Below are positions 24,614-41,220 of a DNA stretch of 52,138 nt, one piece after another. The notes under the pieces were generated by a model, which worked only from the letters and a program-made list of their open reading frames with translations, did no database searches and was not told the DNA's origin. This stretch comes from Sarea resinae. Its lineage: Eukaryota. Made by a program: the position numbers and the translations under genes. The stretch is taken from assembly GCA_026026165.1 (NCBI GenBank), contig JAPEUD010000110.1:1-52138 (forward strand), in the 5' to 3' direction. Position 1 is the first letter of the stretch. Every line of letters begins with the position of its first letter.

Positions 24614-26248
24614 GGTGAGCGCAAGACGCGCGCGCCAGACGGCAGTTCAAAGCGTAGGTGAATTCGAGAGTGCGTAGGTATGTCGAAGTGGGACGGATGG
24701 AGGTGTGGATTTTGTAATGCATTGTTTTGGCGAGACCGGAACTGAAGTCGATGCATCGGAAAATGCATCCTTGTAAATGTACGCCATTGCTTGTCGTCTT
24801 CATCAATGAAACTCTCAACCCACTCATTTCTAATGAACGAAGCAGACGGTCTGGTATTGATGACCTTAATCAAGTAGTTTCCGCTTCTGCGTCACTAGTT
24901 CCAGACCTGTGGCCCCAGATCGGAATCAGAAATCGCAGATGCGTAATTGGTGGCTTCAATTCCGCGCCGTGTGGGCCCTGCCTGCATATACAAATGATAT
25001 CCTCCATTGGCTTTCTGGCTTTCTGGCTTTCTAGCTTCCTAGCTTCCTAGCAATCGAAAATAAGCAACGTAGATACCAACCGATATGGAACGCATTGGAG
25101 CAGTTTCGCGCAGGTCGATTGATACAAATAGGCAGGACACCGCTCCTCAGCCCGTCATAATATTCAACTATGCGGGTTGAGTCAAAACTGTTCAGAGACA
25201 GATATTCAATCTACAGAACTGTTTCGTTGATTGTGAAAATATTCACAAAGTCACATACTTTGCTTGCTACAGAGCCGATAACACAGGAATTTTCTTCGAC
25301 TTGCCTTTGTTGCCTTTGGTATGATATCCCCGCGAAAGCCTAGTAGGCTGCACCAATGTCCTTACTACTCACTTACAAGCGCATCAATCACGCTCAAGTC
25401 GAAGACTATACTGCCTACCTTTCTACAGCATCGGCTAGAAACCACGGTCTCTAGAAGATCTAGACAGGTGTAGCTAGCTACTTTGTTCAGCCCGAACTCT
25501 ATATTTTATCCAGTCTATACTCAGCATTCTACTCTATGTCGTATCTCACGAGCTGTTGAAGGGTCTTGGAGAACGACTAAAGCACGAGAGAGAGCGAGAG
25601 GAAGAAGAAGGTAGGCATATAAAGAAAATAATTTCTCTCTCTCCCTTTTTCTCCCTTTAAACTCACTGTACCCAAAAGTCGCTGGCTTAAGACCGTTCGA
25701 TCTTTTTGGGTTAATAATGATGATATTAGACCCCCTTCTGAATCCAGTCTCTGATATCTCGATCTGGAGATGCTGTCACTTATAAACTTTCCTGCTGATT
25801 TCGCGTCCCTTCTTGCTCAGGTCTCAGTCTCTGGGAATCAAATTCCACTGTCATACACTTTTGAGGGTTGTATCGCGACTGGCCCGAGTAGGAGTCGTCA
25901 AACGTGTACTTGGGTGGGGCATCGTAGAGGAAAGGCGGTGCGACGCCCGTGATTGATTGCGATCGATCACTAGTGCTCGAAAGTTGAACGAAGGGATGCT
26001 GCTAAACGCTCGACACGAGGGAAGCAGAATTTAGAAGGCCACGACGATGAAAAAATTGTGGAGCGAATGGTAAAGGCAGTGAAATAGGTGTGGAGGTGCA
26101 ATTGATTGGCAAACAGATAATTGCCCTAGCAACAGATACTAAACGACTTATCTGATCGGATTTGGCGAATTCGTCGTCATCAGATCTTCATGCATCTGAT
26201 ACCTGGCATTCACATTTCTCGGTCTCAGTCTCTCTGCGCGCGCATATC

Positions 26249-28062
26249 ATGAATTTCTCTCGAGCCTCACCCTTCATCTGCAATAGATGCATAGGCATAT
26301 TGCAGCGAGGTGTAGGCAGGCGCCAGCAAGCGCTCCAAGGAGCACAGCCCCGGTGCTTCTCCAGCGGTCCGATACTGCAGCAGGGCGGACATGGACGGTC
26401 ATTCCGCGTGGCCGTCATCGGCTCAGGCCCTGCCGGCTTCTACTCGGCATATAAGTTGATGTCGAAGATGGAAGATGCGGTGGTGGATATGTATGAGCAT
26501 CTGCCCGTACCATACGGTCTGGTGCGCTTTGGTGTTGCTCCAGACCATCCCGAGGTCAAGGTGCGCATATCGTGACTCGATGCAATGCCGAGGCCTCTTT
26601 TGTGACACATGAGCCATCGCAGAACTGCCAGGACAAATTCAACGAAGTAGCTTCTTCCTCCCGCTTCAACTTCATCGGGAACATCTCCGTGGGCACAGAT
26701 CTGCCCCTCGCCTCTCTCCGACCCCACTACGACGCCTTTCTTTTCGCCTACGGCGCATCGCAAGATCGCGAGCTCGGCATCCCCGGTGAAACGAACCAAA
26801 GCGTCTACTCGGCGCGTGCATTCGTAGGTTGGTACAATGGACTTCCCGAATATGCGTCCTTGGACCCTACTTTTGACCTCACATCTCGTGGCGAGGACGC
26901 CGTCCTAATCGGCCAAGGCAATGTGGCACTCGATATTGCGCGCCTGCTGTTGACGGACATCGATGTCCTCCGGAAGACAGATATCACCGAACAGGCGCTG
27001 GACGTGCTATCAAAGAGCCGGATTAAACGAGTCACTATCGTTGGCCGCAGAGGCCCAATGCAGGTCTGTTTCTCTTCTCATATCCTCTCTCGATTCTATA
27101 CTTATACCGTCCGACAGGCCGCCTTCACGATAAAAGAAGTCCGTGAACTCATGAGCCTCCCCTCCGTTGCCTTCGAACCCATTACCCCCTCCCTCCTCCC
27201 ACCGGCCGGCACATCCCTTCCCCGTCCGCAAAAGCGCCTCCTCCAACTTCTCCAAAAGCAACCCTCAATCCCCGACCCCGACGCCTCAAAATCCTGGTCC
27301 CTCCGCTTCCTCTTGTCGCCCCTCGCCTTTCAAACCACCCCCACGTCCTCACCATCCCACGCCGACGAACTCACCTCCATCCTCTTCGCGCAAAACGCTC
27401 TACCCCAAGACGCACCCTTCTCCCCCAACGCCCGCGTCACGCCGACAGACACAACAACCACCCTGCCAGCAAGCATCGCCTTCCGCTCAATCGGCTACAA
27501 ATCCGCCCCCTTACCAGGATTCTCGGACCTCAACATCCCCTTCGACGCCCGCACTGGCATCATCCCTAACGACCTCCACGGCCGCGTCCTCGCCACCACT
27601 GCCACCACGTCCTCCTCCTCTTCTTCTTCTTCGGAGATACCAGGGTCCCTGGCCGCGAGACACGTGCCCGGCATCTACTGCGCCGGCTGGGTCAAACGCG
27701 GCCCCACGGGCGTCATCGCCAGCACCATGGACGACGCCTTCAACACGGCGTCCGTGATAGCCTCCGACTGGGCCTCTCGCGCCCTCTTCCTCAACGGCCC
27801 CGGGCGTGGCGTCTCCAACCCCGCCACCGGTGCCACCACCACCACTACGGACAGCAACAACATCAGCAGCAGCAATAGCGAAGGCAGCACTGGCCTCGGC
27901 TGGGACGGCGTCAAGGCCGAGGCCGACAAGTTGGGATTGAGGCGAGTCAGCTGGGCGGACTGGCAGCGCATCGATGCGGCCGAGAGGCAGCGGGGCAGGG
28001 AGCGCGGCAAGGAGAGGGAGAAGTTTGCCTCTGTGACAGACATGCTTGCTGTTTTGGACTAG
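26249..28062 (+). CDS. ARH1: Mitochondrial NADPH:adrenodoxin (ferredoxin) oxidoreductase
   Basis: VAVIGSGPAGFY, PYGLVRFGVAPDHPEVK, SARAFVGWYNG, IGQGNVALD, VGRRGP, RSIGY and GWVKRGPTGVI. Exons 26249-26560, 26623-27063, 27118-28062. Confidence 0.95.
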
Positions 28063-28610
28063 ACGGTGCTTTGTTGGCTGGCTGGTGAGGCATATGATGG
28101 GGCATGTTTGTGCGCGTATATGTATGTGTGCGTATAGGGGTGTGTATATTTATGTGTATATAGAGGATCATGTGTGCATAGGTAGCTCAACACAGATACC
28201 ATAGACAGAACAGACAGATAAAACGGCAAGAAGCCCGACCCCCGCTCAATCCAACTTCCAGTCAAGTTCCCTATTGTACACAGCCAGCCAGCCCGCCTGC
28301 ACGTCACGTTAAGTAAAGCCCAACGCCCAAAACCCTCCAAACCCTTTCCATCGCATCCCATCCCATCCCATCCAAAGACACAACCCTCCACATCTCCACA
28401 TGTCCGCATCTGCGAGGCCGTGGTACCCAGCAATTCCATTCCATTCCCTTTCCGATCCCCAGGGCAGACGCAGTGATACCAGATATAGACAGACTTTGTA
28501 CTTACTGACCTTACTTGCCTACCTACGTGCTCGTCCAGACCCGAAGAGATCATGAAAAGACAAAAAAGAAAAAAAAGAAAAGAAAAGAAAGCTGATGTGC
28601 TATCGACCGA

Positions 28611-28659
28611 GCTACTGCGGTCCAAGCCGCGTTTGCCTGCTGATCACATGACCCGTGCG
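28611..28659 (+). repeat. Dispersed 49-bp repeat, copy 1 (copy 2 at 39109-39157)
   Basis: GCTACTGCGGTccaaGCCGCGTTTGCCTGCTGATCACATGACCCGTGCG versus GCTACTGCGGTatatGCTGCGTTTGTCTGCTAATCACATGACCCGTGCG; 43/49 identical by eye. Confidence 0.85.
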
Positions 28660-29198
28660 GCTTTTACCAAGGCCTGCAGGTTGCTCCGATCGACTCAGGG
28701 CTATTCATCTACACATGCAAAATAATCAAAGCATGAGGTTGTGACATGAACAAGTCATACAAGAGACTGCCCTTGGACGAAGTATTGTTTTGGCATTTTC
28801 TGCAATGATATCATGCAGTCCTGTCAGTCATAAGTCAGCATTTGAGATGAGGAATGCACGTGCGAGTATGAGTTGACATCGGAAAGCCCGAGAGAGGCAT
28901 ACTAAGTATTGCTTCGTATTGCTTGCCCGTCATTGGAATCCATGTGAATGAATTCCATGAATGGATTCCATGGATAGCGGGCTTGGTACGCTCTGAGACG
29001 AGTCACGATTGAGTGATGGCTTTACACGAGGACTTACTGCGTACTGCGTGCTACTACGTAGTACTTCAGTAGACGTTCAGGCGATTGAATCGCTTTGTCA
29101 GATATATACATAGTACGGAGTAGATGTCGATTGCAAAACGATCAGATAGTAAAGTTCGCTAATGGAAGGCCTGCGATACAGTACCCCGTACATCTTTC

Positions 29199-29207
29199 TG
29201 GGATTCG
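29199..29207 (+). repeat. Left target-site duplication TGGGATTCG (9 bp)
   Basis: The identical 9-mer directly follows the right TIR at 37361-37369. Confidence 0.93.
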
Positions 29208-29228
29208 TTACCTCAGCAGGCTCAGACC
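29208..29228 (+). repeat. Left terminal inverted repeat TTACCTCAGCAGGCTCAGACC
   Basis: The reverse complement of 37340-37360 is TTACCTCAGCATGCTCAGACC (one mismatch). Confidence 0.93.
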
Positions 29229-29724
29229 ATAGATCACGTGGACCTGGATTAACATCCGGCCCGTTCGGATGAATGACTAATCATTCCCAAAAGGGAAATC
29301 CACGAGATTATAGTCTGAGGCAGATTTACTAACTTTGTATAGACTGAGCGCGAGTTATTAACGCGTTGCAGATATTTAACTCAGTATATCTCTGCAATTA
29401 TATCTGCAAGTATCTTTAAAACCTAATCACCTATAAAGAATATATAAGGCTATGTAATAGTCTGTTTTACATCTTATAAGGATTATTAGTTTAGGATATC
29501 TTATGCCTTAAAGTTAAAAACGTGTTAGTAAGAGCGAGCAGCTTTAATTCTAGCAGATATGCTAATTTGTGACTGCTACAGCAATATCTGCTATATACCT
29601 GCAGCGAATGATTTCTGATACACTCTAGGTCAATTATAAGCGCCTGTAAGGGCTGTTTTTATCTGTGCTACACCTGCATAACCACCTTGCTATTAACTAT
29701 ATCTGCTGTTGTTGCTTAGGTTAG

Positions 29725-32470
29725 ATGCCGCTAAAGAAACACACCTGTAGAGAGTTATATAACTGCAAGGTAGATAAAGAGATAGAGCAATAACAGCGCG
29801 ATAGAATAGCCTATAATAGACTGTTAACAGACAAAGAGCGTTAAATATAGAAGCTGTAAGATAATATTAGGAAGTAGGCAACTCCTTGCTAAGCATACTA
29901 AGCAGCGTTTAGGCCTATAAACCTTAGAGGTTTGTTAGTTTAGGAGTTCAGCACAAACAGCCCTCTTTTGTTCGACTATTTAAGAGTTTAGCACGAACAG
30001 CCCTCTTTTGTCTAGCTGTTTAGCCTTTAGAGCACTATATATGTCCTATCTCTATAGAGTAGCTAGTAGAGTAGTTGCTAATGCTATCCTATCACAAATC
30101 ATTGTTTGTACTCTATTTGTGAGTTTGTAGATTTGTACAAACCTTGCGCATATCCTTTGCATACACGAACTAAGTTAGCCTAGCCACTCACAGATAACAT
30201 TTAACAGCTCTATAATGCAGATAAAGAGGAACAACAAGAGGCTATTAACGCTATTATCTGCGCGATATATCTATATAGCAGACAGCTAGGGCAGCTGATA
30301 GCACTCTGCTAGTTGCTATATACTAAGCAAGACTTATTCCTTATCGCTAAGACCTTGTTTAGAAAGAGCATAATAATGCAGTCGCTCTTGTGCCTAGTCT
30401 GCAGGGCTATAGTTCTTGTTATCCTTCTGTTAAATAAGATTAGTAAAGAGCAGACTGCGCAGATAAGAGGACTCACTAGTATAAAGCCTGTTTATATAAC
30501 AGGAGATAATAACAACTATCTGCTGCTTAAGGCTATCTGTATAGGCGAATATACCTATATCCTAATGTTGTTAGAACTAGCTGTCAGCCTAAAATTAGAG
30601 CGGATATAGAAGGATGTTAGACTACAGGCGCAGATATCGCTAGTAGTCTTAGATAAGGTGCATCTAGTGTCAAATTAGTCCTTCTTCTGCTGTTCTTATG
30701 CTAGTCTTAGCATACTGCGCAGATTACTCAGAACTAAGCCCTGGTTCGCCTGCACTGCAACGCTAGATAATAATACGTTCGCAGATGTACGCTGACTTAC
30801 AGGCTTTAGAGAAGATATTAAGGTTGTCTGCACTTCTATTAATTGTCTAGAACTAGCAATCGTCTGAGAATATATACGCAGAGGCAATAAGCGATCGTTT
30901 AATTGCCTCTACTTTATTATTAAAGGCTGCAGCGCTAGTATTAGGGATACTCTATTGTCTGCCGCAGATGTAACGTCTAGGACTAGCAGACTAGACGCTA
31001 TAGCATCAGCTGCGCTTAGTCTAGACTGTTTAGCATTAGGTCAATGTGCTAGTCAGTATTACTAGAATGATTGTCTAACTCTGCAGCGGATAACAAAGAC
31101 AGTTGTCTTTATAAACAGCAAGCGATTGCTAAAGGAAGCTTATGACAAGGTGCGCAGATAGTTGCAAGAGCGCAGATATCTAGCGCGGCTAGCAATGCAG
31201 ACTATTAGAGTATACTATGCTACGCTTGCAACAAACGACAAGGAGCAGATATAGCATGAATTTTCAGAACAACTGTCTAGGATCTAGGTATTGTTCTGCT
31301 CTAATGCAGTTGCATAAGGAGCAGATATCGCAGATATTAAGCGTGTTATCCACTTTAGTCTGTTCTGCAACCGCCTTACAAGCCTAGTCTAGCAACGTTT
31401 TAGTCGTGCAGCACGCGGCAGCAGTTAGAAGAGTGAGGCAATACTGCTTGTTAATGACTAGTGTAAGGGTCTAAAGGTGCAGACAAACCTTAGGGGTATT
31501 AGCAAGACTAACAGTTAGCAGCAGATCAGGGCTACTACAGCGCAGACACTTGTTTCCTTATCCTAGTCAAGTTAGCTAAGTTAAGAATACAATTGCAGAG
31601 ATAGTAAGGATTCTAACAATATAAGTAATGTCTCTATCTCTGCCTTAATCGCACTGCTAGACAAAGCAGACAGTCAACTACAGACTATATAAGAATTGAC
31701 TCTAGGAGGATTGTGTGTAGCCTTACCCGCTGAATTAAGGCCTTGTCCTGCGGATTTAAGGCCTAGAAGCGTGTATAAACAGAGAGCAGACCTTCTATAT
31801 CTGCTATATAACTTTGCGAACAAGGAAAAGGCTTGCCTGCAGCAGATATTCCTACAGACCTTTAACAAAGACTTAGCAGATAATAGCACTAAAGAGCTTG
31901 TTCCTAGCAGACGCTGCTGTTCGAACTGCAATCCAGAACTTTAGCTGTCTAAAAGGCCTAACTTTAGACTATTTAGCAGTGATATGCTGCGGTTAAAGAA
32001 CAACAAGCACTTAATCAGCCAGATTAAGCAATAGATATTAGACTAGGCGCAGACGAAATACAGCGATATGATTTAGATCCTAGTCCTAGGATATGTGATT
32101 TCGTCTGATGTTGTTTAGCAGATATGCAATTAGAAGCATAGTATCTACAACGCAGAAACGCTGCTTTGCTATGCAGAATAGGATAGAGGAGACTTTAATA
32201 AGGCTGATCTAGACTTATTAGCAGCGTTTATCTGCGCAGATAGTTAGGTTCTGCGTTTATATAGGGATGCACTAATTATAGCTAATTCTCCTTTGTTACT
32301 AACGCTACTAGAGTTAAATCAACTGTCTAACTAGCTGCTAACAGCCACTAATTATCGCTGTAAATCAATGACTATTAACAAGTTAGTGTTAGATAGGGCA
32401 CTAAAGAGACAGCAGCTATTAGCTCCTATTAATATAAATAGAAATATCTGCAGCGAACAAAGGAAGTAAA
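29725..32470 (+). pseudogene. RecQ-like superfamily-2 DEAH helicase of the transposon, RIP-degraded (ends approximate)
   Basis: One frame retains AKTLFRKS (~AKTSFGKS, motif I), LLNKISKEQ (Ia), LDKVHLVSN* (~DEVH..W, II), FACTATLD (III), CSNAVA*GADIADIKRVIHF (V), *QRFSRAARG (~WQRFGRAAR, VI) and CLQQIF...CCSNC (RecQ Zn site). Many TAA/TAG stops. Probable intron at 29930-30130. Confidence 0.88.
29941..30020 (+). repeat. 40-bp tandem duplication inside the element (putative helicase intron)
   Basis: Two copies of ...GAGTTYAGCACRAACAGCCCTCTTTTGT..., differing by transitions. Confidence 0.8.
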
Positions 32471-32544
32471 CAAAGGCAGACTAAATAGCAGTGAATATCT
32501 ACAGCGAACAAAGAAGGTAAACAAAGGCAGACTAAATAACAGTG
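32443..32544 (+). repeat. 51-bp tandem duplication inside the element
   Basis: AATATCTRCAGCGAACAAAGRARGTAAACAAAGGCAGACTAAATARCAGTG x2, differing only by G/A. Confidence 0.85.
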
Positions 32545-32774
32545 AATGTAAAGCTATTCGCTTGTATAGCTGCATTAGTTAGCAGCACACCTTTGTATTC
32601 GACCTCTTTGTTTGTCTTATAACCTACCTAACTATAACATCCTTATTAACATCCTTATTAACATTATTAGCATCATTATTATCAACATCATTAGTATTAT
32701 CATTATTAACATCATTACTACCCTTATTAACAGCCTATTAGCAGCGATTATATCAGCGTTAAACAGCTACTAAG

Positions 32775-34115
32775 ATGCTACCTAGTGAAGCAGACAATAA
32801 TAAATTGAACTAGTACGTTAAGGCTGTGATTAAGGAGAGGGCTAGAGCACTAGGACCCTTGTAGGCTATAGCCTAAGGTTATTATCTAAGACAACAACTA
32901 ATGTAATAATAGCAGAGAGATAGTTAAGACAAATAAGACAGTAAGAGTAGCAGCAAATGTTAGCAGACTACTATTATTACTTCTAGTATGTTGATCTGCC
33001 CTATAAATAACTTAGTTAGCTGCAGCTAATAAGACAGCTGTATTTCGGCTGCTAAGAGATAGAGGCAGCAGAAGAGGTGGCTGCCTACAATAAGAACCTG
33101 CGTTTAGATAATCTAGCAAGCGTTAAGAACATAGCTGCTCCTCCTAGTGATACTGTACTGTCTATGCCGCGTAGCCTGCTATCTCTGCTGTCTGATAAAC
33201 TATCTTTGCTGCAGTCACTAATGTCTCTACAGTCTCTACTGCCTTAGACGCTGTCTCTGCTGCTCTAGACACTCTCTCTACTAGCTTAGCTAGCTTAACT
33301 AGCTTAGACACTCTCTCTAGATAGTCTACCACTAAGCTAGTCTACTTTTTAGGATAGTATATAGGACGTCTGCTGTCTGATTTAGCCTAACTAGCTAGCC
33401 CCTAATCTAGCTGTGTAGGATAGCCTTTTAGAGACTCGCTAAAAGGTATATGCTTACGCTAATCTTATTGTGAATGATCTGTACTAGGGCGTTTCACTTA
33501 CTAGGAAATGCGAAAGGTGCGTTAATAAAGGCATTCTATGCATAATCTATTAGAGTAGGCTAAAAAGGCAGATAGTAAAGCTAGAGGACAACTGTGTAGA
33601 GTGCTGTGTAGCAGGCAAACTGTGCCGCTATAATGCAGACGCAGACAATAATGACAAAGACAATAATGCGCAGCCTGTAAGCAGATTAGCAGTGCAGATA
33701 TCAAACATCACTAACCCTGTATTAGGAGCAACCTCCTCTGCAGCAAGTGACACGTTGATTGGCTAAACAAGCAAATAATAATTAAGACAATAGTCTACTG
33801 CAAAAGAAGGTATAACAGATCTATCTGCACTTATTAGGCATAAGCTGACGTAGTATATAGAGCTGTAAGAAGGACAGTTAAAAGCCTGTTAAGGAGAGCG
33901 ATGTCACTAAGCAAGCACCTGTACAGCCTACTGCAACGCCTTTAACAAATATCTGCACTAGCAGCGAATCAATCATGCTATCTGCACTAGGACAAGGTGC
34001 TATAGAACAGCGGGTTACAGACCTAGGCGCAGAAGTGACCTACCTTAGGGCAGAAGTGGCGCAGGTATCTAGAAATATCCTTAAGATATTAGCTATTATC
34101 TGCTGTAGGGCCTAG
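32775..34115 (+). pseudogene. Third transposon gene: Zn(II)2Cys6-like motif plus C-terminal coiled coil, RIP-degraded (ends approximate)
   Basis: 33509-33625 reads CERCVNKGILC-x17-CVECCVAGKLC (C-x2-C-x6-C-x17-C-x2-C-x6-C, one internal stop). ~34000-34100 reads IEQRVTDLGAEVTYLRAEVAQVSRNILKILAII (heptad-like). Candidate introns at ~33446-33487 and ~33745-33793. Confidence 0.55.
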
Positions 34116-34189
34116 TAGTTAGCTTAGTAGTTAGTTTATTAGCGTGTTAGTGCTGTCACGCGTTTTCTAGTATTAAATTGAGTCTTTTA

Positions 34190-37111
34190 CCTGCGAACAT
34201 AATATCACAGAGTGATAATATTAGAACATTACACTATAGAATATCTGCTATACTCTAGCTGCACACGCTACATATCCTACGCCTAATAAGATGTTAATAT
34301 AACTGTATATTAATAGCAGATATACAAGTAAATGCTTATGTCTAAGCCTACTAAGGCTTGCACTATATCCTCCTTAATATCTCTAACAACTTAGTCGCCT
34401 AGTTCTATATATCTGTTGTTAAACAAAGGTAATCCTCTGCGCGCTAATTGATTAACGCCTAACTGCAGTAGACTAGGTGCAACATACATAGATAAGCGAT
34501 CTTAGCGGCAGATAATTGAATCTTAAGCGATTAGATTAGCAAGACTTTTAATATCTTCTGCAGCAGACCTGTCTAGATAAGATACATTGATCTGCTTGCT
34601 AAACGAGAATTCAAACTAAGCCTGTAGCAGAGCAAGATAGCTGCTTATTAACACTGACTATTTGAACAGCGCTGTTACATTAAATGTTGAGTTGCCTTTT
34701 GTCTGCAAAAGAGTCTTTAGCTTAAGGTTTAGGAGTTTGTTTAATTGATCGACCTTAAAGAAGGCGTCTAATCTAGTATAGTTGCTGATAAGACTGTTTG
34801 CAAGGATCGCCTGCTGCAGATATCGATCACAGATAGGAGTAGATATTAGCCGCTAAAGACAAATCATTTCTCACAAGTAGTTATGCGATAAACTCCTACT
34901 GAAATATAGACAGCTACAAGCAATAACGCGGTAGAGCAACCTAATATCTGCGCGTTTAATAGCATGCCTTAACGTTATATATGTCTTAATGTAGTGTAAG
35001 AAGCAGATATAATTAGAATACTCTAAATCATGCAGCAAACGCTGTTTATAAGAGCTTCGCTTTTGATTAGGCGCTGAAGAAGCTATATCTGCTAGGTCCT
35101 TGCTTGTTTTGTACTAGGCTAGTTCCTAATAGGCGGTAGTAGAAAAGACTCTTTAGCAGATATCCTCTACCTGTCAAAGAAAATCTGCAGGACTTAGTTA
35201 GCAGATATATTTAGCTATCTAACCTTTATGCCTGTTCTTAAATCTAGCAGGCAAATCCGATATAAATAGAGCAACGATCTGCGCCTAAAAGCTATACTAG
35301 ACTAGTTCTTGCTAGTAGTAGAATAGCGCTTTATCTGCAGGTATATTCTGACAGCTAAGGAAGTTAATATGCGAATAGAGGGTTAAGTATTGCTAGATAT
35401 TACTCTCTCTACTATAATGTAACCTAACAATTAATGCTAAAAGGTTTATCTGCAAGTAGAAGAGACTAGGCACTAGTAATGCCTAGGCGAGGCGATTGTA
35501 GGCATCTGCTGCCTCTACCTACTCAATTTAGTAAGAGCAGATAAGGCTTGCTGTTTTCTAATCTCTAAATATTAAGACTAACTGTTTCTTAAAGTTAACT
35601 GTATCTTAGCTGAGCTAGCAGACAAATATGTTGTCAAGCACATTATATGTGCCTGAAATAGAACCCTTACTCTTAGTGATTAGTCCTAGTGTAAGATGCT
35701 CTGTCTGCAAGGGCAGAAGAACATTAACGCATAGTATCTGCAGGAATTAAACACTATCCGCTGCAAATATAGCCTCTATCTGTTCTAGAAACGCTGCGCA
35801 GATAGAACTAGCAATAAAGTGAGTCAATATCTTAGTCTGTGTCTTATCTATAAAATTCCTGTCTGCCTTAAGTAGATCTATTACCTCTATACAGATATCT
35901 AGATAGTATATGTCTTAAGTAAGTAGTCTATTTAGCAAGCATTGTCTGTGCAGTAGCTTTCTAGTCGTGTATAAACGAAAATCTCTGGTATTACCTACAG
36001 TCTAGTGTTGCACTCTTTGTTGCCACTTAAAGTTATTGTAGACCACTATGAAATCCTATGTCTGCGCTGTAGAGGAGATATTTGCCTTGTTTTAGTTAGC
36101 TAGGTCTGCTAAATAGAAGGCGTTAATATCACGTTCCTTGCTCTGCTCTAATATCTGCAGCTTCTGCATATTAATTGTGCGATATCTGTCTATAAGTCTA
36201 AGGCTATGCAGCACGCTTAACGCTTAGCAGGTCAGCCCTATATCCTTTAAATATAGTCCTAACAGGCGCGCGAAACAGTTTATAGAAGTCCTTAAACAGC
36301 TAAGGCTTAGTATTAATATAGTCATAACTATTTAGCCTTTATCTGCTAGGGTTCTCTGCTAATACACAGTGCTAGACTGTTTTACCTCTGCTGCACTACA
36401 GATAAGACATGTAAGCATAGGCGCTATCCGCTTAATAGTGTCTGCAGTGCTAGAGATATTAAGCTCCTTAAAACCTAGGTCCTTATTGTATTGCCTAAAC
36501 AACAGACATTCGCCTTGCAGCCTGTCTAGCTTATTGCAGATAAGAGTAATAGCGCTGTTAACAACTGCAGCTTAGCCTTTGTCTGCACTAATCAGAAGTG
36601 TATAAAGACCCTTATAACTAAGGATAAGGTTAAAAAGGTCTTCTCTTCTCTTTATCTGCTGCTACTTGTTACATTCTACAGTGCTCTCTAGCTAGAGTTG
36701 TATAAAGTAGATAGGCGTTATCTGCTATTCCTATAGTTGCCTTAGGATACCTTAGACCTTTTCCTCTAGGCTTAAACGCTTAGTTGTATTAGGAGATAAA
36801 GTAGAAGGAGAAGATAACAGTAGCAGATCAGATATCTTAGGCGATAAACGCGAATATAATAGTAGATATACAGGCAAATCAGATAACTTAGGCGTTAAAA
36901 GCAAATCTAAAGACAATAATAGCGAATCAGGCACCTTAAGCAGTGATAGCAGATGTATTAATAACAGTAGTGATAGTGGCGAATTGAGATTAGGCTATAA
37001 CTGCGGTGCAGATAGTAGAGTTTGCAGTCTCTAAGGTGTATCTGCAGCAGATAAAGCCTTTGTCCTGCAGCGCTTCCTGCTAGTTCTAGAAAAAGGAGCA
37101 GATGCTGACAT
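34190..37111 (-). pseudogene. Academ-type DDE transposase (DUF6589-like), RIP-degraded (3' end approximate)
   Basis: A single frame from ATG 37111 contains VVYNNFKW (~YDNFEW, ~36040), IFRD*KT (~GDQKT, ~35560), RLA*ALLVPSLFYLQIN (~WALPVPGLFHLQMN, ~35470) and ANSLISNYTRLDAFFKVDQLNKLLN (~N..G...F.D..E..N, ~34770). All revert by C>T/G>A back-mutation. Confidence 0.82.
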
Positions 37112-37339
37112 TCTAATCGAATATAGAGCAGATCTAGACCTTTCTTTTCAGCCTCTTTTCATTACAGACAGCGTTGTGGTTGCGGATATCTTATGGTTTG
37201 AAGTTGATAATAATCGCCTCTATACAAATGACCCGCTCAGCCCATACAAAGTCGGTCAAAAGTGCCTCAGACCTCTGGCTGGTCAATTGCCTAGTTAGGC
37301 AATAGTGGTCCGTGCTTAGCGGACCACGTGACCGAGCGA

Positions 37340-37360
37340 GGTCTGAGCATGCTGAGGTAA
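37340..37360 (-). repeat. Right terminal inverted repeat
   Basis: GGTCTGAGCATGCTGAGGTAA, the inverted match to 29208-29228. Confidence 0.93.
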
Positions 37361-37369
37361 TGGGATTCG
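37361..37369 (+). repeat. Right target-site duplication TGGGATTCG
   Basis: Identical to 29199-29207. Confidence 0.93.
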
Positions 37370-37641
37370 GCCATTTTCGTCATAGCTATCCCCGAAATCC
37401 TCGTACTTCATACACTTCCATTGCGTCTTTCGCCATGTCCCCAGGTCAAGACGCATCATAACCACTCACCCACTCAGTTCTGCCCCCGACCCGCGCAGAG
37501 CACACCGACGGTAGAAGCAGCTTCGGCTTTGGATATTATCTGCTCATTCGTCCCAGACCATCGCGACGGCGGCAGGCGAACAGACCGCTGCAAGTTGTCT
37601 TTCAGCATCATCCAAACGCCTCTTGTCAGCGCGGAGTGATC

Positions 37642-38466
37642 ATGTCCGTCTCCTCAACAGCAGGAGAGACAGCGTACCAAGCTCGCTCACTTGTGAGTAT
37701 TACCCGCGGTTGTGGCGTGCGTTGCGGCGCAGTTGCCACGCCGTTTACCTGCCAGCCCATCGGCCTTCTATGTTTCTCGCCATCAAAGCTTGATGCCAAG
37801 TACTGATCCGCCGAGCGCTAGTACCGTTCACTTCTGAGACAGTCACGGCAATTTGCTGCATACAACTTTCGGGAATATGCGAAGCGAAGGACCAGAGATT
37901 CTTTCCGAGAACACCGAGAGGAAAAGGACGAGAGGCGGATACAGGAGCTGATCCAGAAGGGTTTGAAGGAGTTACAGGTGCTCAAGGTTTGTGATGATGT
38001 TCTTTCGTGCCCCTTGAAAGGCTTGGAACTTTCCGGCGTGTATCTGGGTTTACAGAGGATGCCTGCCATATGCCGCCTAAGAACGGGGCAATTGTCTGGG
38101 CTGGCCTCTTGAGGAAAGCCTTTCAGAGAGCAGAACAGAACTAGTAATGGGCAGCGCTGGGAGCATGCTAATTTTGATAACAGAGGCAGACTGTTGTCAG
38201 TCAATTCTTCCAGCTCGATAGATTAGTCGTTGAGGGGCAAAAAACGGTTAGTCTCACATGTTCACCCATTGTAGGGTGTCAACTTCATTACCATCGGAGA
38301 TAAAATCGATCACTGACACGTGCGAATTCAGGGCAAGCAAACAGGAGAAGACGGAGGCATAGTGAGACAGAAAGATACCGGGTAAGCCTGGCAATGGCCA
38401 ACTCTCCGTCTACCCTGACGTTTGAATTCAACGATGGCTCGCTAACTTCTCGCTAGATGGGATTGA
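37642..38466 (+). CDS. ISD11: LYR-motif protein 4 / Isd11 (Nfs1 partner, mitochondrial Fe-S assembly); missed by the ORF track
   Basis: Exons 37642-37692, 37822-37986, 38184-38246, 38332-38381, 38457-38466 give [48 protein letters not shown]...[23 protein letters not shown]...DTGWD*. Confidence 0.93.
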
Positions 38467-38781
38467 CCGCATTATCGGAGGTGTTGGGGACCAAGCATAG
38501 TGACGGTGATTTCAATTGATTAAGCACGACGGCTCCTTTCTCTGAGCGTTACGGTTTTTGTACCATATGAAGGACATCATCTCTGTCGATGGAGCTGGAA
38601 GAGCCTCTCCATTCCACTCCTGAGACGAAATCTGGGCCGGATTTCCAATAGGAGTGTGTATTGTCGACGACGCGAAGCGTTCAAGGTTGCGTTTTCCTCC
38701 GCCCGAAGTCTCTTGATGAGACTCTCTGTACCTAGGAAAGACAATATCTATCGATATGTCCATCTATCTACCTTCTATTTC

Positions 38782-38810
38782 CCTACTACTACTACTACTA
38801 CTACTACTAC
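38782..38810. repeat. (ACT)n microsatellite
   Basis: Direct inspection. Confidence 0.9.
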
Positions 38811-39108
38811 GTCCCTCAGATCCAATCCCCCCAGACATATAACAATCCTGGCAATCAGTCGTGACTTTGTTCATCAAGAAGTGGAATCCAGCCAGCCCTG
38901 GAGCCCAGTGACACATTTTCGATAGAGAGCGAACAGTTGCCTATCATTATTGCCACCTACGTACTTGGTGAGCAGGCACTTATTCACTCTTCACCATTGT
39001 TCACGACAGCGCACGTACGAATTTTCTTCTCCTGTGGCTTCCTAATCAATTTCCTCTGCAACCTCTCTACCTTGCTCAACTTTTTCTGCTCGACCAGTCA
39101 ATTAATCT

Positions 39109-39157
39109 GCTACTGCGGTATATGCTGCGTTTGTCTGCTAATCACATGACCCGTGCG
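39109..39157 (+). repeat. Dispersed 49-bp repeat, copy 2 (copy 1 at 28611-28659)
   Basis: Same orientation as copy 1. Three isolated differences are C>T/G>A in this copy. Confidence 0.85.
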
Positions 39158-39338
39158 CACTGCCACACCTGTGCTCTAGTTCTATAACAGCTTGAAGACC
39201 CTCTCGCTATCTATCATTGTTGCCGCTCCCTTGGTCGAGAGAAAACAAAAGGGGGTGGTGGAAGAACTCTGTTGAGTAAGGTAGTGCGACGTGGGATTAG
39301 GTACCTGTCTATGAGGTGCTGGTGCCCTTTCCAAGGTG

Positions 39339-39402
39339 GGTAGGTAGGTACCTAGGTAGGTAGGTAGGTAGGTAGGTAGGTAGGTAGGTAGGTAGGTAGG
39401 TA
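39339..39402. repeat. (GGTA)n microsatellite
   Basis: Direct inspection. Confidence 0.9.
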
Positions 39403-39936
39403 TGTGCACGCTAGGTATGTGCACGGTATTACTGATGAGGTGGATGGATAGAGGGTTAGAGGTTTCTTCTTCTTTCATCTTCTTGAGCTTTTCCTTCACG
39501 TTCTTGTTCTGTTGTTTGCTTTCTTCTTTCCTGGCTTGTGTTTATTCGGTCGGTCCGTCGGTCGGTGGGCTTGTCGTGTGGTATTGGATATGGATGTCTG
39601 TATGTCTGCATGCCTGTATATGAATCTTATGCCTGCATGTATGCCTGTCTGTCTTCTGTCTGTCTGTATCCATGTCTGTATCCATGGAATGCATATATCT
39701 ATGTATGTCTGTACTGTTATAGCCATGGCCAGCCCTGATTGGACGGCAGTCTACCCCAAAAAATAGATAGGAAAAAAGAAACGGAACTCCATGAATAAGA
39801 TCCCGGTTGTCAGAGGAACAAACAATGAAACATGGGAAGAGGAAAAACCCAGAAGAATTTTGAAAATGAATCAATCGTGGATCGTGCACGCTGCCACCCT
39901 CGCTCGCTCGCTGTCCCGCTCGCTCCCGCGGAGCGC

Positions 39937-41220
39937 TCACGGAGCCGGATGTCGAACCCGGTCCTCATAGGCCCTCCAGCCCTCGACGCGATACCTCTCT
40001 GCCTCGGCGGCCCTGTCATCGGCGCCTAGAATGCCCCGGCCGACGATGATGACATCGCAGCCCTCGTCGAGGATGACCTTGCGGGGCGTCCGGTACTGCT
40101 GGCCGAGGCCATCGCCGCTCTGGGCCTCGCCATGGCTGTCCGCGGGCGGCAACGACACGCCAGGGGTCAGGACGAGGAAGTTGTCGTCCGGCAGCGAGTT
40201 GAGGTCCTGTTGGGCGATGAAGCCCAGCACGAAGTTGCGGTGGTCGCGCGCCATGCGCACGCACGTCGACGTGTAGTCGCCCGTCAGCAGGTTGCCGGCC
40301 GAGGACATCTGGGCGAGCAGGAGCAGGCCGCGCGCGAAGGGCGGATCGCCCAGAGCGGTGAGCGCGGCAGCTGTTTGGGCCGGCGTCGAGGGCTCCGCGT
40401 GCAGCAGGGGCGCCAGCTGGGTCGACGAGGCGGATGCCGACGGCGGCGGCGACGTCGTGTGATCGGTGCGCGATTCGATCGTCGTCGCCCGCACAATGCT
40501 GCCTTTTCGCGACGACGGGGAGCTCGTTGACGCTTGCAGGTTGGGATTCGAATCTTTGACATCGTCGCTGGATTGCGCGAGCGCGCTGCCGTCGTCGGGG
40601 TGGCTAAAGGACAATGACGATGACGAGCTGCTTGGCCGTGGCGATCCCGTGCTTATTTCCGTGCTGACCGATGCATTGATGCTGGATACAGCCGACACGG
40701 CGGCCGAGTGCAATGCTTCGACGATGGCCGGCCCAGGGAAGATGTGCGCATTGGTTATAGCGGCCCAGCGGACAATGGACAGGGGGCCCGAGGTGTATTG
40801 TTTCTGGACGGTGCCTGTTGTTGCGATTGTTTAATCAGTCGTCTTGTTCGGTTGATAGAGAATACAATTCTTGAATTAGAGAAAGGAGAAGAGAGACATA
40901 CTGCCAATGTCCCCGAATTTGCGATCCTCGAATACAAGAAATCTTTTCCTTCGCGCAATGTCACGTAGGCCTCTGACCGTGCGCTCGCCAAAGTCGTCGA
41001 TGATATCGGCGTGCGTCTTGAGCATGCATATCGAGTCGCCCACTTCTTCCGCCAGCTGGAGCAGGCCCGAGGTGGTGGTCACGTCGGCCGAGAGACATAG
41101 ATTCGTCCGCTTGATGGTGATCAGTTGCAGGAGGAAGGAGGCGAGCGGATGGGTGTTGGGGAGGGCGGCCCGGGCGAGGTAGGTTTGTGTTCGGGTTGGT
41201 GACGGAGACGGGGTGGCCAT
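39937..41220 (-). CDS. URA3: Orotidine-5'-phosphate decarboxylase (long-insert fungal type)
   Basis: TNLCLSADV, MLKTHADII, FEDRKFGDIG|STVQKQYT, RGLLLLAQMSSAGNL, TPGV, GDGLGQQYRTP and DVIIVGRGI. Exons 41220-40902 and 40814-39937. Confidence 0.95.

Follow-up and report, generated by a model that had tools for sequence, protein, structure and literature searches.

Between the helicase gene and the transposase-like gene of an AcademH-like transposon in Sarea resinae, we find a plus-strand region with a conserved six-cysteine domain, at positions 32,775 to 34,115 of a 52,138-nucleotide stretch of contig JAPEUD010000110.1 (GenBank assembly GCA_026026165.1, positions 1 to 52,138; hereafter the window). 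We read this region as a third gene of the element, inactivated by repeat-induced point mutation (RIP), which would have coded for a small dimeric DNA-binding protein in the service of the transposon, and we put the probability of this reading as a whole at roughly 0.45. Its parts differ in strength: that the region is a real third gene of the element is very probable, that this gene coded for a zinc-cluster DNA-binding protein is reasonably probable, and that the protein served the element, by recognising its ends or activating its own genes, instead of being a captured host passenger, is a tentative proposal held at somewhat less than even odds.

Results

A conserved six-cysteine domain in the third gene

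The initial annotation had described a C-x2-C-x6-C-x17-C-x2-C-x6-C motif at 33509-33625 on the plus strand, and this description holds. A search of all six frames of the 52138 bases with the regular expression C-x2-C-x6-C-x5-20-C-x2-C-x6-8-C returned this site alone, and first-order Markov resamples contained no match in 200 of 200 cases for the window and in 500 of 500 for the element. Translated on the plus strand from 33443 or 33506, the region reads KCERCVNKGILCIIY, a stop and SRLKRQIVKLEDNCVECCVAGKLCRYN; the longer read-through from 33443 gives KVYAYANLIVNDLY, GVSLTRKCERCVNKGILCIIY and SRLKRQIVKLEDNCVECCVAGKLCRYNADADNNDKDNNAQP, each separated from the next by a stop, with the in-frame TAG at 33551 falling inside the middle spacer of the motif. 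A seventh cysteine, at 33605 (within CVECC), lies beyond the six of the motif. The motif forms the core of a domain of about 70 residues, Zn2Cys6-like or DUF3716-like, which homology to other proteins delimits to 33419-33628 (+). It is followed at 33629-33676 (+) by an Asn/Asp-rich linker, YNADADNNDKDNNAQP, the low-complexity linker noticed previously, which aligns with the poly-Asp linker of an intact relative (L004, see below). The stop density of the domain frame, 0.071 per codon, is intermediate between that of the helicase and transposase frames of the element (0.039-0.046) and that of their off frames (0.088-0.109).

The third gene belongs to a repeated, AcademH-like element

The element spans 29208-37360 (8153 bp), is RIP-mutated, and has its edges set by terminal inverted repeats and a target-site duplication. 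The inverted repeats, at 29208-29228 (+) and 37340-37360 (-), are 21 nt long and 95% complementary, and the flanking nine bases, TGGGATTCG, are identical at 29199-29207 and 37361-37369. GC content drops to 0.36-0.42 across about 29-37 kb of the window, and the RIP index TpA/ApT is 1.35-1.77 in the element against 0.49-0.79 in bins wholly outside it; no second copy of the element occurs within the window.

A Pfam scan of all six frames, with stops replaced by X, gave two matches. Helicase_C (E 3.3e-9) marks a RecQ/WRN-like superfamily 2 (SF2) helicase core at 30310-31417 (+), in a frame running from about 29900 to 32436, and 13 PDB sequences match this frame at E<=0.001 (best 2.8e-7), all of them WRN or RecQ proteins. 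DUF6589 (PF20231; E 4.9e-33, profile positions 26-392 of 410) marks a transposase-like core at 34631-35827 (-), in a frame extending to about 37111. AcademH target-site duplications measure 9 or 10 bp (PMC10045372), and since the duplication here has 9 bp on each side, the element is AcademH-like; the helicase beside the transposase agrees with this placement. We provisionally equate DUF6589 with the Academ transposase, from its context.

The same stretch recurs many times in the source run, where 487 contigs fall on 32300-34400 and differ by transitions only, at 92 places. None carries an indel or skips the region, with the limit that contigs can miss rare forms, and depth is continuous and similar from the helicase end through the third-gene region. 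Because of this large number of contigs, with transitions only and no skipping, we conclude that the third gene is part of a repeated, RIP-mutated family. No Cys codon is affected among the 40 of the 92 differences that are listed. At 33665 most other copies have G, which gives Asp instead of Asn, and G-to-A changes account for the difference between the Asn-rich linker of the window and an Asp-rich linker.

The spacer between the helicase and the third gene (32443-32743) consists of tandem repeats, with two 51-nt units at 32443-32544 (92% identical) and about ten units of a 12-nt period at 32624-32743; these arrays could be promoter or spacer DNA.

Relatives of the domain

A phmmer search with the read-through frame of 33047-33676 against 1.84 billion representatives returned one match, at E 5e-7: P0001 (GQ43DRAFT_479578), a 630-residue hypothetical protein of Delitschia confertaspora with two copies of the domain as well as C2H2 fingers. 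Both repeats match the window solely at 33419-33628 (E 2.8e-5 and 0.004; the next match has E 0.5). Metagenome contigs were searched with a degenerate DNA pattern, G-V-x5-C-x-R-C-x3-G-x2-C-x-[IV]-Y, that covers no more than the first half of the domain; it matched eight loci there (L001-L008) and none in viral_contigs. L001 looks like a chance match; the other seven are fungal-type and represent five distinct sequences, L003 being the same as L006 and L007 the same as L008 over the compared parts. Two features absent from the search pattern recur among them, namely an upstream His in all seven and the second C-x2-C-x6-C in six, with L002 deviating at the last Cys.

The six cysteines of the window and the position of the upstream His are conserved in the P0001 repeats and in the metagenome relatives, which also have a Y-G-V motif in common. 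Since they align with cysteines in both, the six are ancestral and not RIP products of Arg codons. The initial annotation had cautioned that some cysteines might have arisen in just that way, and this fits the extra cysteine of CVECC, which is matched by Arg in four of six relatives and may be a RIP product. Opposite the invariant His of the relatives the window has the Tyr codon TAC, at 33455, where most other source-run copies read C and therefore His. The middle spacer, 17 residues in the window, varies from 13 to 24 in the relatives.

One relative, L004, is an intact open reading frame of about 240 residues from its first Met, with a Pro/Gln-rich N-terminus, the domain, poly-Asp, a coiled coil and a stop, and is similar to the window over the domain and on into the linker (E 6e-5). 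Its contig (1438 bp), too short to show whether the gene sits in a mobile element, shows in all frames, downstream of the reading frame at about 900-1438, a unit of about 40 nt that recurs several times. P0001, L006 and L007 combine C2H2 fingers with a second copy of the six-Cys domain. Together with L002, these three have an N-terminal region in common (HFH…G.CE…LPFLW…YF…GKL..FAHF) that is without a Pfam match, and these host-like relatives look like an undescribed fungal gene family. In L003 (at about 1910) and L006 (at about 2150) an in-frame stop occupies the Tyr position of the Q-Y-G-H motif (KGK-stop-GHK) just upstream of the domain, and may reflect a pseudogene, an intron boundary or a strain variant.

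Further searches yielded no additional relative. A word-index protein search with the P0001 domain recovered itself alone, and such searches with the read-through third-gene or transposase frame recovered nothing, RIP damage probably defeating the exact-word filter. Back-translated scans of viral_contigs and metagenome_contigs with a two-row alignment (A1) gave no confirmed relative, and A1 had no meaningful match among PDB sequences.

Family placement and predicted fold

Canonical Zn2Cys6 clusters are spaced C-x2-C-x6-C-x5-12-C-x2-C-x6-8-C. The outer spacings of the window motif fit this formula, and its middle spacer, at 17 residues against 5-12, does not. At E<=10, six of the seven members of a family alignment (A3) match Pfam Zn_clus (PF00172) and three match DUF3716 (PF12511). 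The sole member to pass the Zn_clus cut-off of 21 bits is L006, with 22.8 bits over half of the profile; its DUF3716 score is 20.6 bits (cut-off 22), over profile positions 6-52 of 59. The other Zn_clus scores are 18.5 bits for the P0001 stretch, 18.3 for L007 and 18.1 for L004, and the other DUF3716 scores 14.8 bits for the P0001 stretch (profile positions 8-54) and 13.4 for L004. In the ESM Atlas, the clusters nearest to the P0001 domain bear DUF3716 (features 0.80, structure TM 0.65), followed by Zn_clus clusters (TM 0.39-0.56), both of which serve as leads only.

An AlphaFold model of the P0001 domain built from A3 has moderate confidence (pLDDT 66.7), while a model from the two-row A1 (pLDDT 48.6) was unusable. 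When the former was compared with 48161 chains by VIA-align, seven reached Z>=2, and the top six were Lac9, Ppr1, Pho7, Leu3, Gal4 and AlcR (Z 2.2-2.6, rmsd 2.1-3.7, 33-42 residues aligned); the same six appear as compact weak rows in Foldseek. From the sequence and the model, we read the domain as a putative long-spacer relative of the Zn2Cys6 cluster that is formally in neither Pfam family and is best termed DUF3716-like, DUF3716 appearing to be the better whole-domain match for the family. The likeness to Gal4-type clusters claimed in the initial annotation is thereby kept in part: the Zn_clus matches across the family and the six weak fold matches speak for it, and the score of the window itself, together with the better match of DUF3716, speaks against it.

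Gene model

The Cys domain and linker lie in frame 2 and the heptad segment in frame 0, so that an intron is needed to join them. A probable intron of 250 nt, at 33677-33926 (+), has a GTAAGC donor at 33677, CACTAAG at 33905 and an ACAG acceptor ending at 33926. Its removal fuses frame 2 to frame 0 exactly, and the stretch has non-coding-like stops, two TGA among them; a 49-nt intron at 33677-33725 is a possible alternative. The predicted C-terminal exon, at 33927-34115 (+), is open for 62 codons up to the stop TAG at 34113-34115 and contains, at about 34002-34100, a coiled-coil-like stretch, AIEQRVTDLGAEVTYLRAEVAQVSRNILKILAII, in which ten 4-3 positions in a row are hydrophobic. The C-terminal heptad segment reported previously is thus present, but in a frame other than that of the Cys domain, which makes the intron a requirement. 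A complex prediction with two copies of this exon scored 0.08.

Codon usage, scored after training on the helicase and transposase frames of the element itself and weak overall, favours plus frame 2 at 33320-33680 and plus frame 0 at 33860-34040, where the minus frames are negative; the signal of the transposase frame is lost below about 34500. Upstream of the domain, 32775-33418 (+) may code for a low-complexity N-terminal part, its coding signal being weak or ambiguous, and ATG 32775 is a possible start codon, a candidate only. The extent from 32775 that had been proposed for the gene stands as regards its position between the helicase (+) and the transposase-like gene (-), and is doubtful for this N-terminal part.

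Three other arrangements were considered and set aside. Introns at 33446-33487 or 33446-33504 would interrupt the homology to P0001, which is continuous there and starts upstream of the first Cys; a two-intron model (33677-33725 and 33865-33926) leaves the last exon in the wrong frame; and 33888-34115 is probably not a minus-strand transposase C-terminus, as the minus codon scores are negative and stops in the transposase frame are as dense at 34116-34629 as in non-coding DNA.

Candidate target sites at the element ends

The palindrome TCCG-N7-CGGA has two matches in the 52-kb window, both subterminal: one at 29255-29269, which starts 47 nt inside the left end, and one at 37309-37323, which ends 37 nt inside the right end. 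We regard both as candidate dimer sites, and as a lead only. CGG/CCG triplets, of which the element has 32, are enriched at both of its ends, with 4 of them in the leftmost 200 bp and 5 in the rightmost 153 bp, as the initial annotation had supposed.

Subterminal blocks common to both element ends extend to about 150 bp inward, and one such block, GTCTGAGGCA...ACTTTGTAT.G.CTGAGCG, lies about 110-150 bp from each end. CACGTG boxes at 29235-29240 and 37326-37331 (within TCACGTGG), 27-30 nt inside the ends and in mirror image, are palindromic as well and, like TCCG-N7-CGGA, a candidate site for protein binding. Each subterminal region (29211-29349 and 37235-37357) contains four copies of CTGAGS, in mirrored orientation, against a single copy, at 35610, in the 8-kb interior.

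Discussion

Joined as modelled, the third gene would specify a protein with a low-complexity N-terminus, a six-Cys zinc-cluster domain of about 70 residues, an acidic linker and a C-terminal coiled coil, a four-part layout that is that of a dimeric sequence-specific DNA-binding protein. Dimers of this protein, which would bind zinc through the six cysteines, may bind to the TCCG-N7-CGGA palindromes that lie 37-47 bp from the two ends of the element. Once there, they could either flag these ends to the transposase and helicase or activate transcription of the element's genes. To our knowledge, AcademH elements are among the least understood of transposon lineages, and we know of no account of how their transposase and helicase find the ends. 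A self-encoded dimeric zinc-cluster protein with matching palindromes at the ends offers a concrete hypothesis for this step, which can be tested at the bench.

Several of our results weigh against this reading. With respect to the gene, the frame from ATG 32775 has 11 stops in 90 codons (0.12 per codon), which is non-coding-like; no homologue was found for the N-terminal part at 32775-33418; outside the domain, antisense frames are as poor in stops as the sense frames, for example in a Leu/Ser-rich repeat upstream of 33419; and the intron is a prediction only. With respect to the domain, the window version reaches 8.3 bits on Zn_clus (E 3.5, half-profile; gathering cut-off 21) and has no match to DUF3716 at E<=10 (cut-off 22 bits), Foldseek returned nothing at E<=0.001 with the model, the VIA-align matches are weak, and the model could echo the Cys spacing. 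With respect to the target sites, the palindrome was picked after the sequence had been viewed, and 23 of 100 window shuffles give at least two matches somewhere.

The surroundings of the relatives point in the same direction. None of the eight metagenome loci is similar to the helicase or transposase frames of the window at E<=1 within up to 2 kb on each side, and the question raised in the initial annotation, whether homologues always lie between an Academ transposase and a RecQ-like helicase, is answered in the negative by the seven relatives over that range. Six-frame Pfam searches of three of the eight loci (L005-L007) gave neither a helicase nor a transposase family, and L005 adjoins a sugar transporter gene. 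Since the DNA around the relatives has no similarity to either gene, the domain is not confined to AcademH-type elements. An orthologue of the whole gene was not found in another AcademH-type element either; of the three-gene system with its own DNA-binding protein that had been envisaged, the gene inside a repeated element and the ancestral cysteines stand, and recurrence in other such elements is not supported.

Considering where its relatives occur, one can ask whether the gene is a mere passenger, that is, an L004-type host gene for a zinc cluster with a coiled coil that the element captured and amplified with itself, without any role in transposition. All relatives found lie outside recognisable AcademH contexts and most are host-like multi-domain genes with C2H2 fingers, the probable intron fits a captured genomic copy, and PMC10799480 considers that transposons with a helicase may capture genes. 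However, the third gene occupies the core of the element and reads in the same direction as the helicase, copies of the entire stretch occur at similar depth, palindromic CGG-type sites are present at both ends, and an unrelated transposon, REP9, also carries DUF3716 genes, one of which influences how the genes of that element are expressed (PMC8232023). We consider capture without function somewhat unlikely.

A related question is whether a working gene was still present when the family spread, or only a remnant of the domain, with the heptad and the N-terminal reading frames arising by chance in low-complexity DNA. The intermediate stop density of the domain frame, the lack of homology beyond domain and linker and the non-coding-like N-terminal stretch would fit such a relic. 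Yet domain, linker and coiled coil follow one another as in the intact L004, the last exon stays open for 62 codons where off frames average about one stop in ten codons, codon usage favours plus frame 0 in this exon, and the splice signals are canonical, which makes a relic improbable.

It is less probable still that the region represents C-terminal exons of the helicase, in a two-gene element whose helicase carried its own zinc cluster. The region does lie on the same strand directly downstream of the helicase, and a separate gene has no proven start codon; against this, the helicase frame ends at about 32436, some 340 bp short of 32775 and with two tandem-repeat arrays in between, and L004 displays the same architecture as a stand-alone protein of about 240 residues. 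An unrelated nested insertion with its own termini, private to this copy, is hardly credible, because the region sits inside a bounded and repeated element, has no flanking inverted repeat or target-site duplication, is not bracketed by the nearest inverted repeat (I2, 32049-32073/33028-33052, 80% complementary), and is skipped by none of the source-run contigs, within the limit for rare forms given above, with depth continuous from the helicase end.

Returning to the gene as a component of the transposon, we can compare it with systems already described. The present element resembles AcademH transposons in its terminal inverted repeats, SF2 helicase gene, transposase-like gene, fungal host and 9-bp target-site duplication (PMC10045372 for the duplication). 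The third, zinc-cluster-like gene between the helicase and the transposase-like gene may set it apart from them. Our literature search turned up no report of a zinc-cluster gene in an Academ element; Kojima 2020, which lay outside the scope of the search, may bear on the point.

The closest parallel comes from REP9 of Zymoseptoria tritici, described in the accessible part of PMC8232023 as a four-gene IS3EU-like transposon in which two genes, REP9-1 and REP9-2, have DUF3716, and in which over-expression of REP9-1 induced the other REP9 genes. Both cases concern an accessory gene in a multi-gene DNA transposon bounded by terminal inverted repeats, and a fungal Cys-rich domain of about 60 residues whose profile aligns nearly whole in L006 and P0001. 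In contrast to DUF3716 proteins, the window domain itself has no match to the profile and its best relative stays 1.4 bits below the cut-off; in contrast to REP9, with an rve-type integrase and a 6-bp duplication as given in that text, the present element has a helicase, DUF6589 and a 9-bp duplication, and its third gene has a predicted C-terminal coiled coil, a feature not mentioned for REP9-1 or REP9-2 in the same part of the paper. Thus, a DUF3716-type accessory gene in a fungal transposon is already known (PMC8232023), and what appears to be new here is the AcademH-type carrier and the coiled-coil tail.

With the Gal4-type Zn2Cys6 proteins (Gal4, Ppr1, Leu3, Pho7, AlcR, Lac9), whose fold gives the sole structural matches, all weak, the third-gene product has in common two C-x2-C-x6-C halves, the order of cluster, linker and coiled coil, and paired CGG triplets as possible targets. 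It differs from them in the long middle spacer (17 residues, 13-24 in relatives, against 5-12), in aligning with no more than half of the profile at once, in a further conserved helix at the N-terminus that contains an invariant His, and in being encoded in a transposon instead of a host regulator gene. P0001, L002, L003/L006 and L007/L008 agree with it in the domain, the six cysteines, the upstream His and the Y-G-V motif; they are larger, have a conserved N-terminal domain, and display neither a coiled-coil tail nor transposon genes in the sequence examined.

If our reading is correct, a Zn2Cys6-type fold can be predicted for the DUF3716-like domain, and transposons are linked to it for a second time and independently; this would bear on how part of the large repertoire of fungal zinc clusters arose. 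PMC10776026 describes a Fusarium DUF3716 protein as orthologous to a Neurospora protein that binds telomeric sequences. It is conceivable, though distinctly unlikely on present evidence, that unrelated fungal transposons, such as the IS3EU-like REP9 and AcademH, repeatedly draw on long-spacer DUF3716-type proteins as an interchangeable module for DNA recognition, which supplies the end recognition or self-activation that the transposases lack, and that host DUF3716-like and C2H2-linked genes, including the reported telomere-binding protein, are domesticated descendants of these modules.

Genomic setting of the element

The genes flanking the element are housekeeping genes, namely those for OMP decarboxylase (39940-40830) and, further out, for AICAR transformylase, AIR synthase and GH31, with RibD_C also found there. 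The RIP-type composition ends abruptly at the borders of the element (neighbouring stretches 26000-29200 and 37400-41000). These sharp edges and the housekeeping neighbours indicate that the element is a RIP-mutated copy in a gene-rich region and not part of a repeat island.

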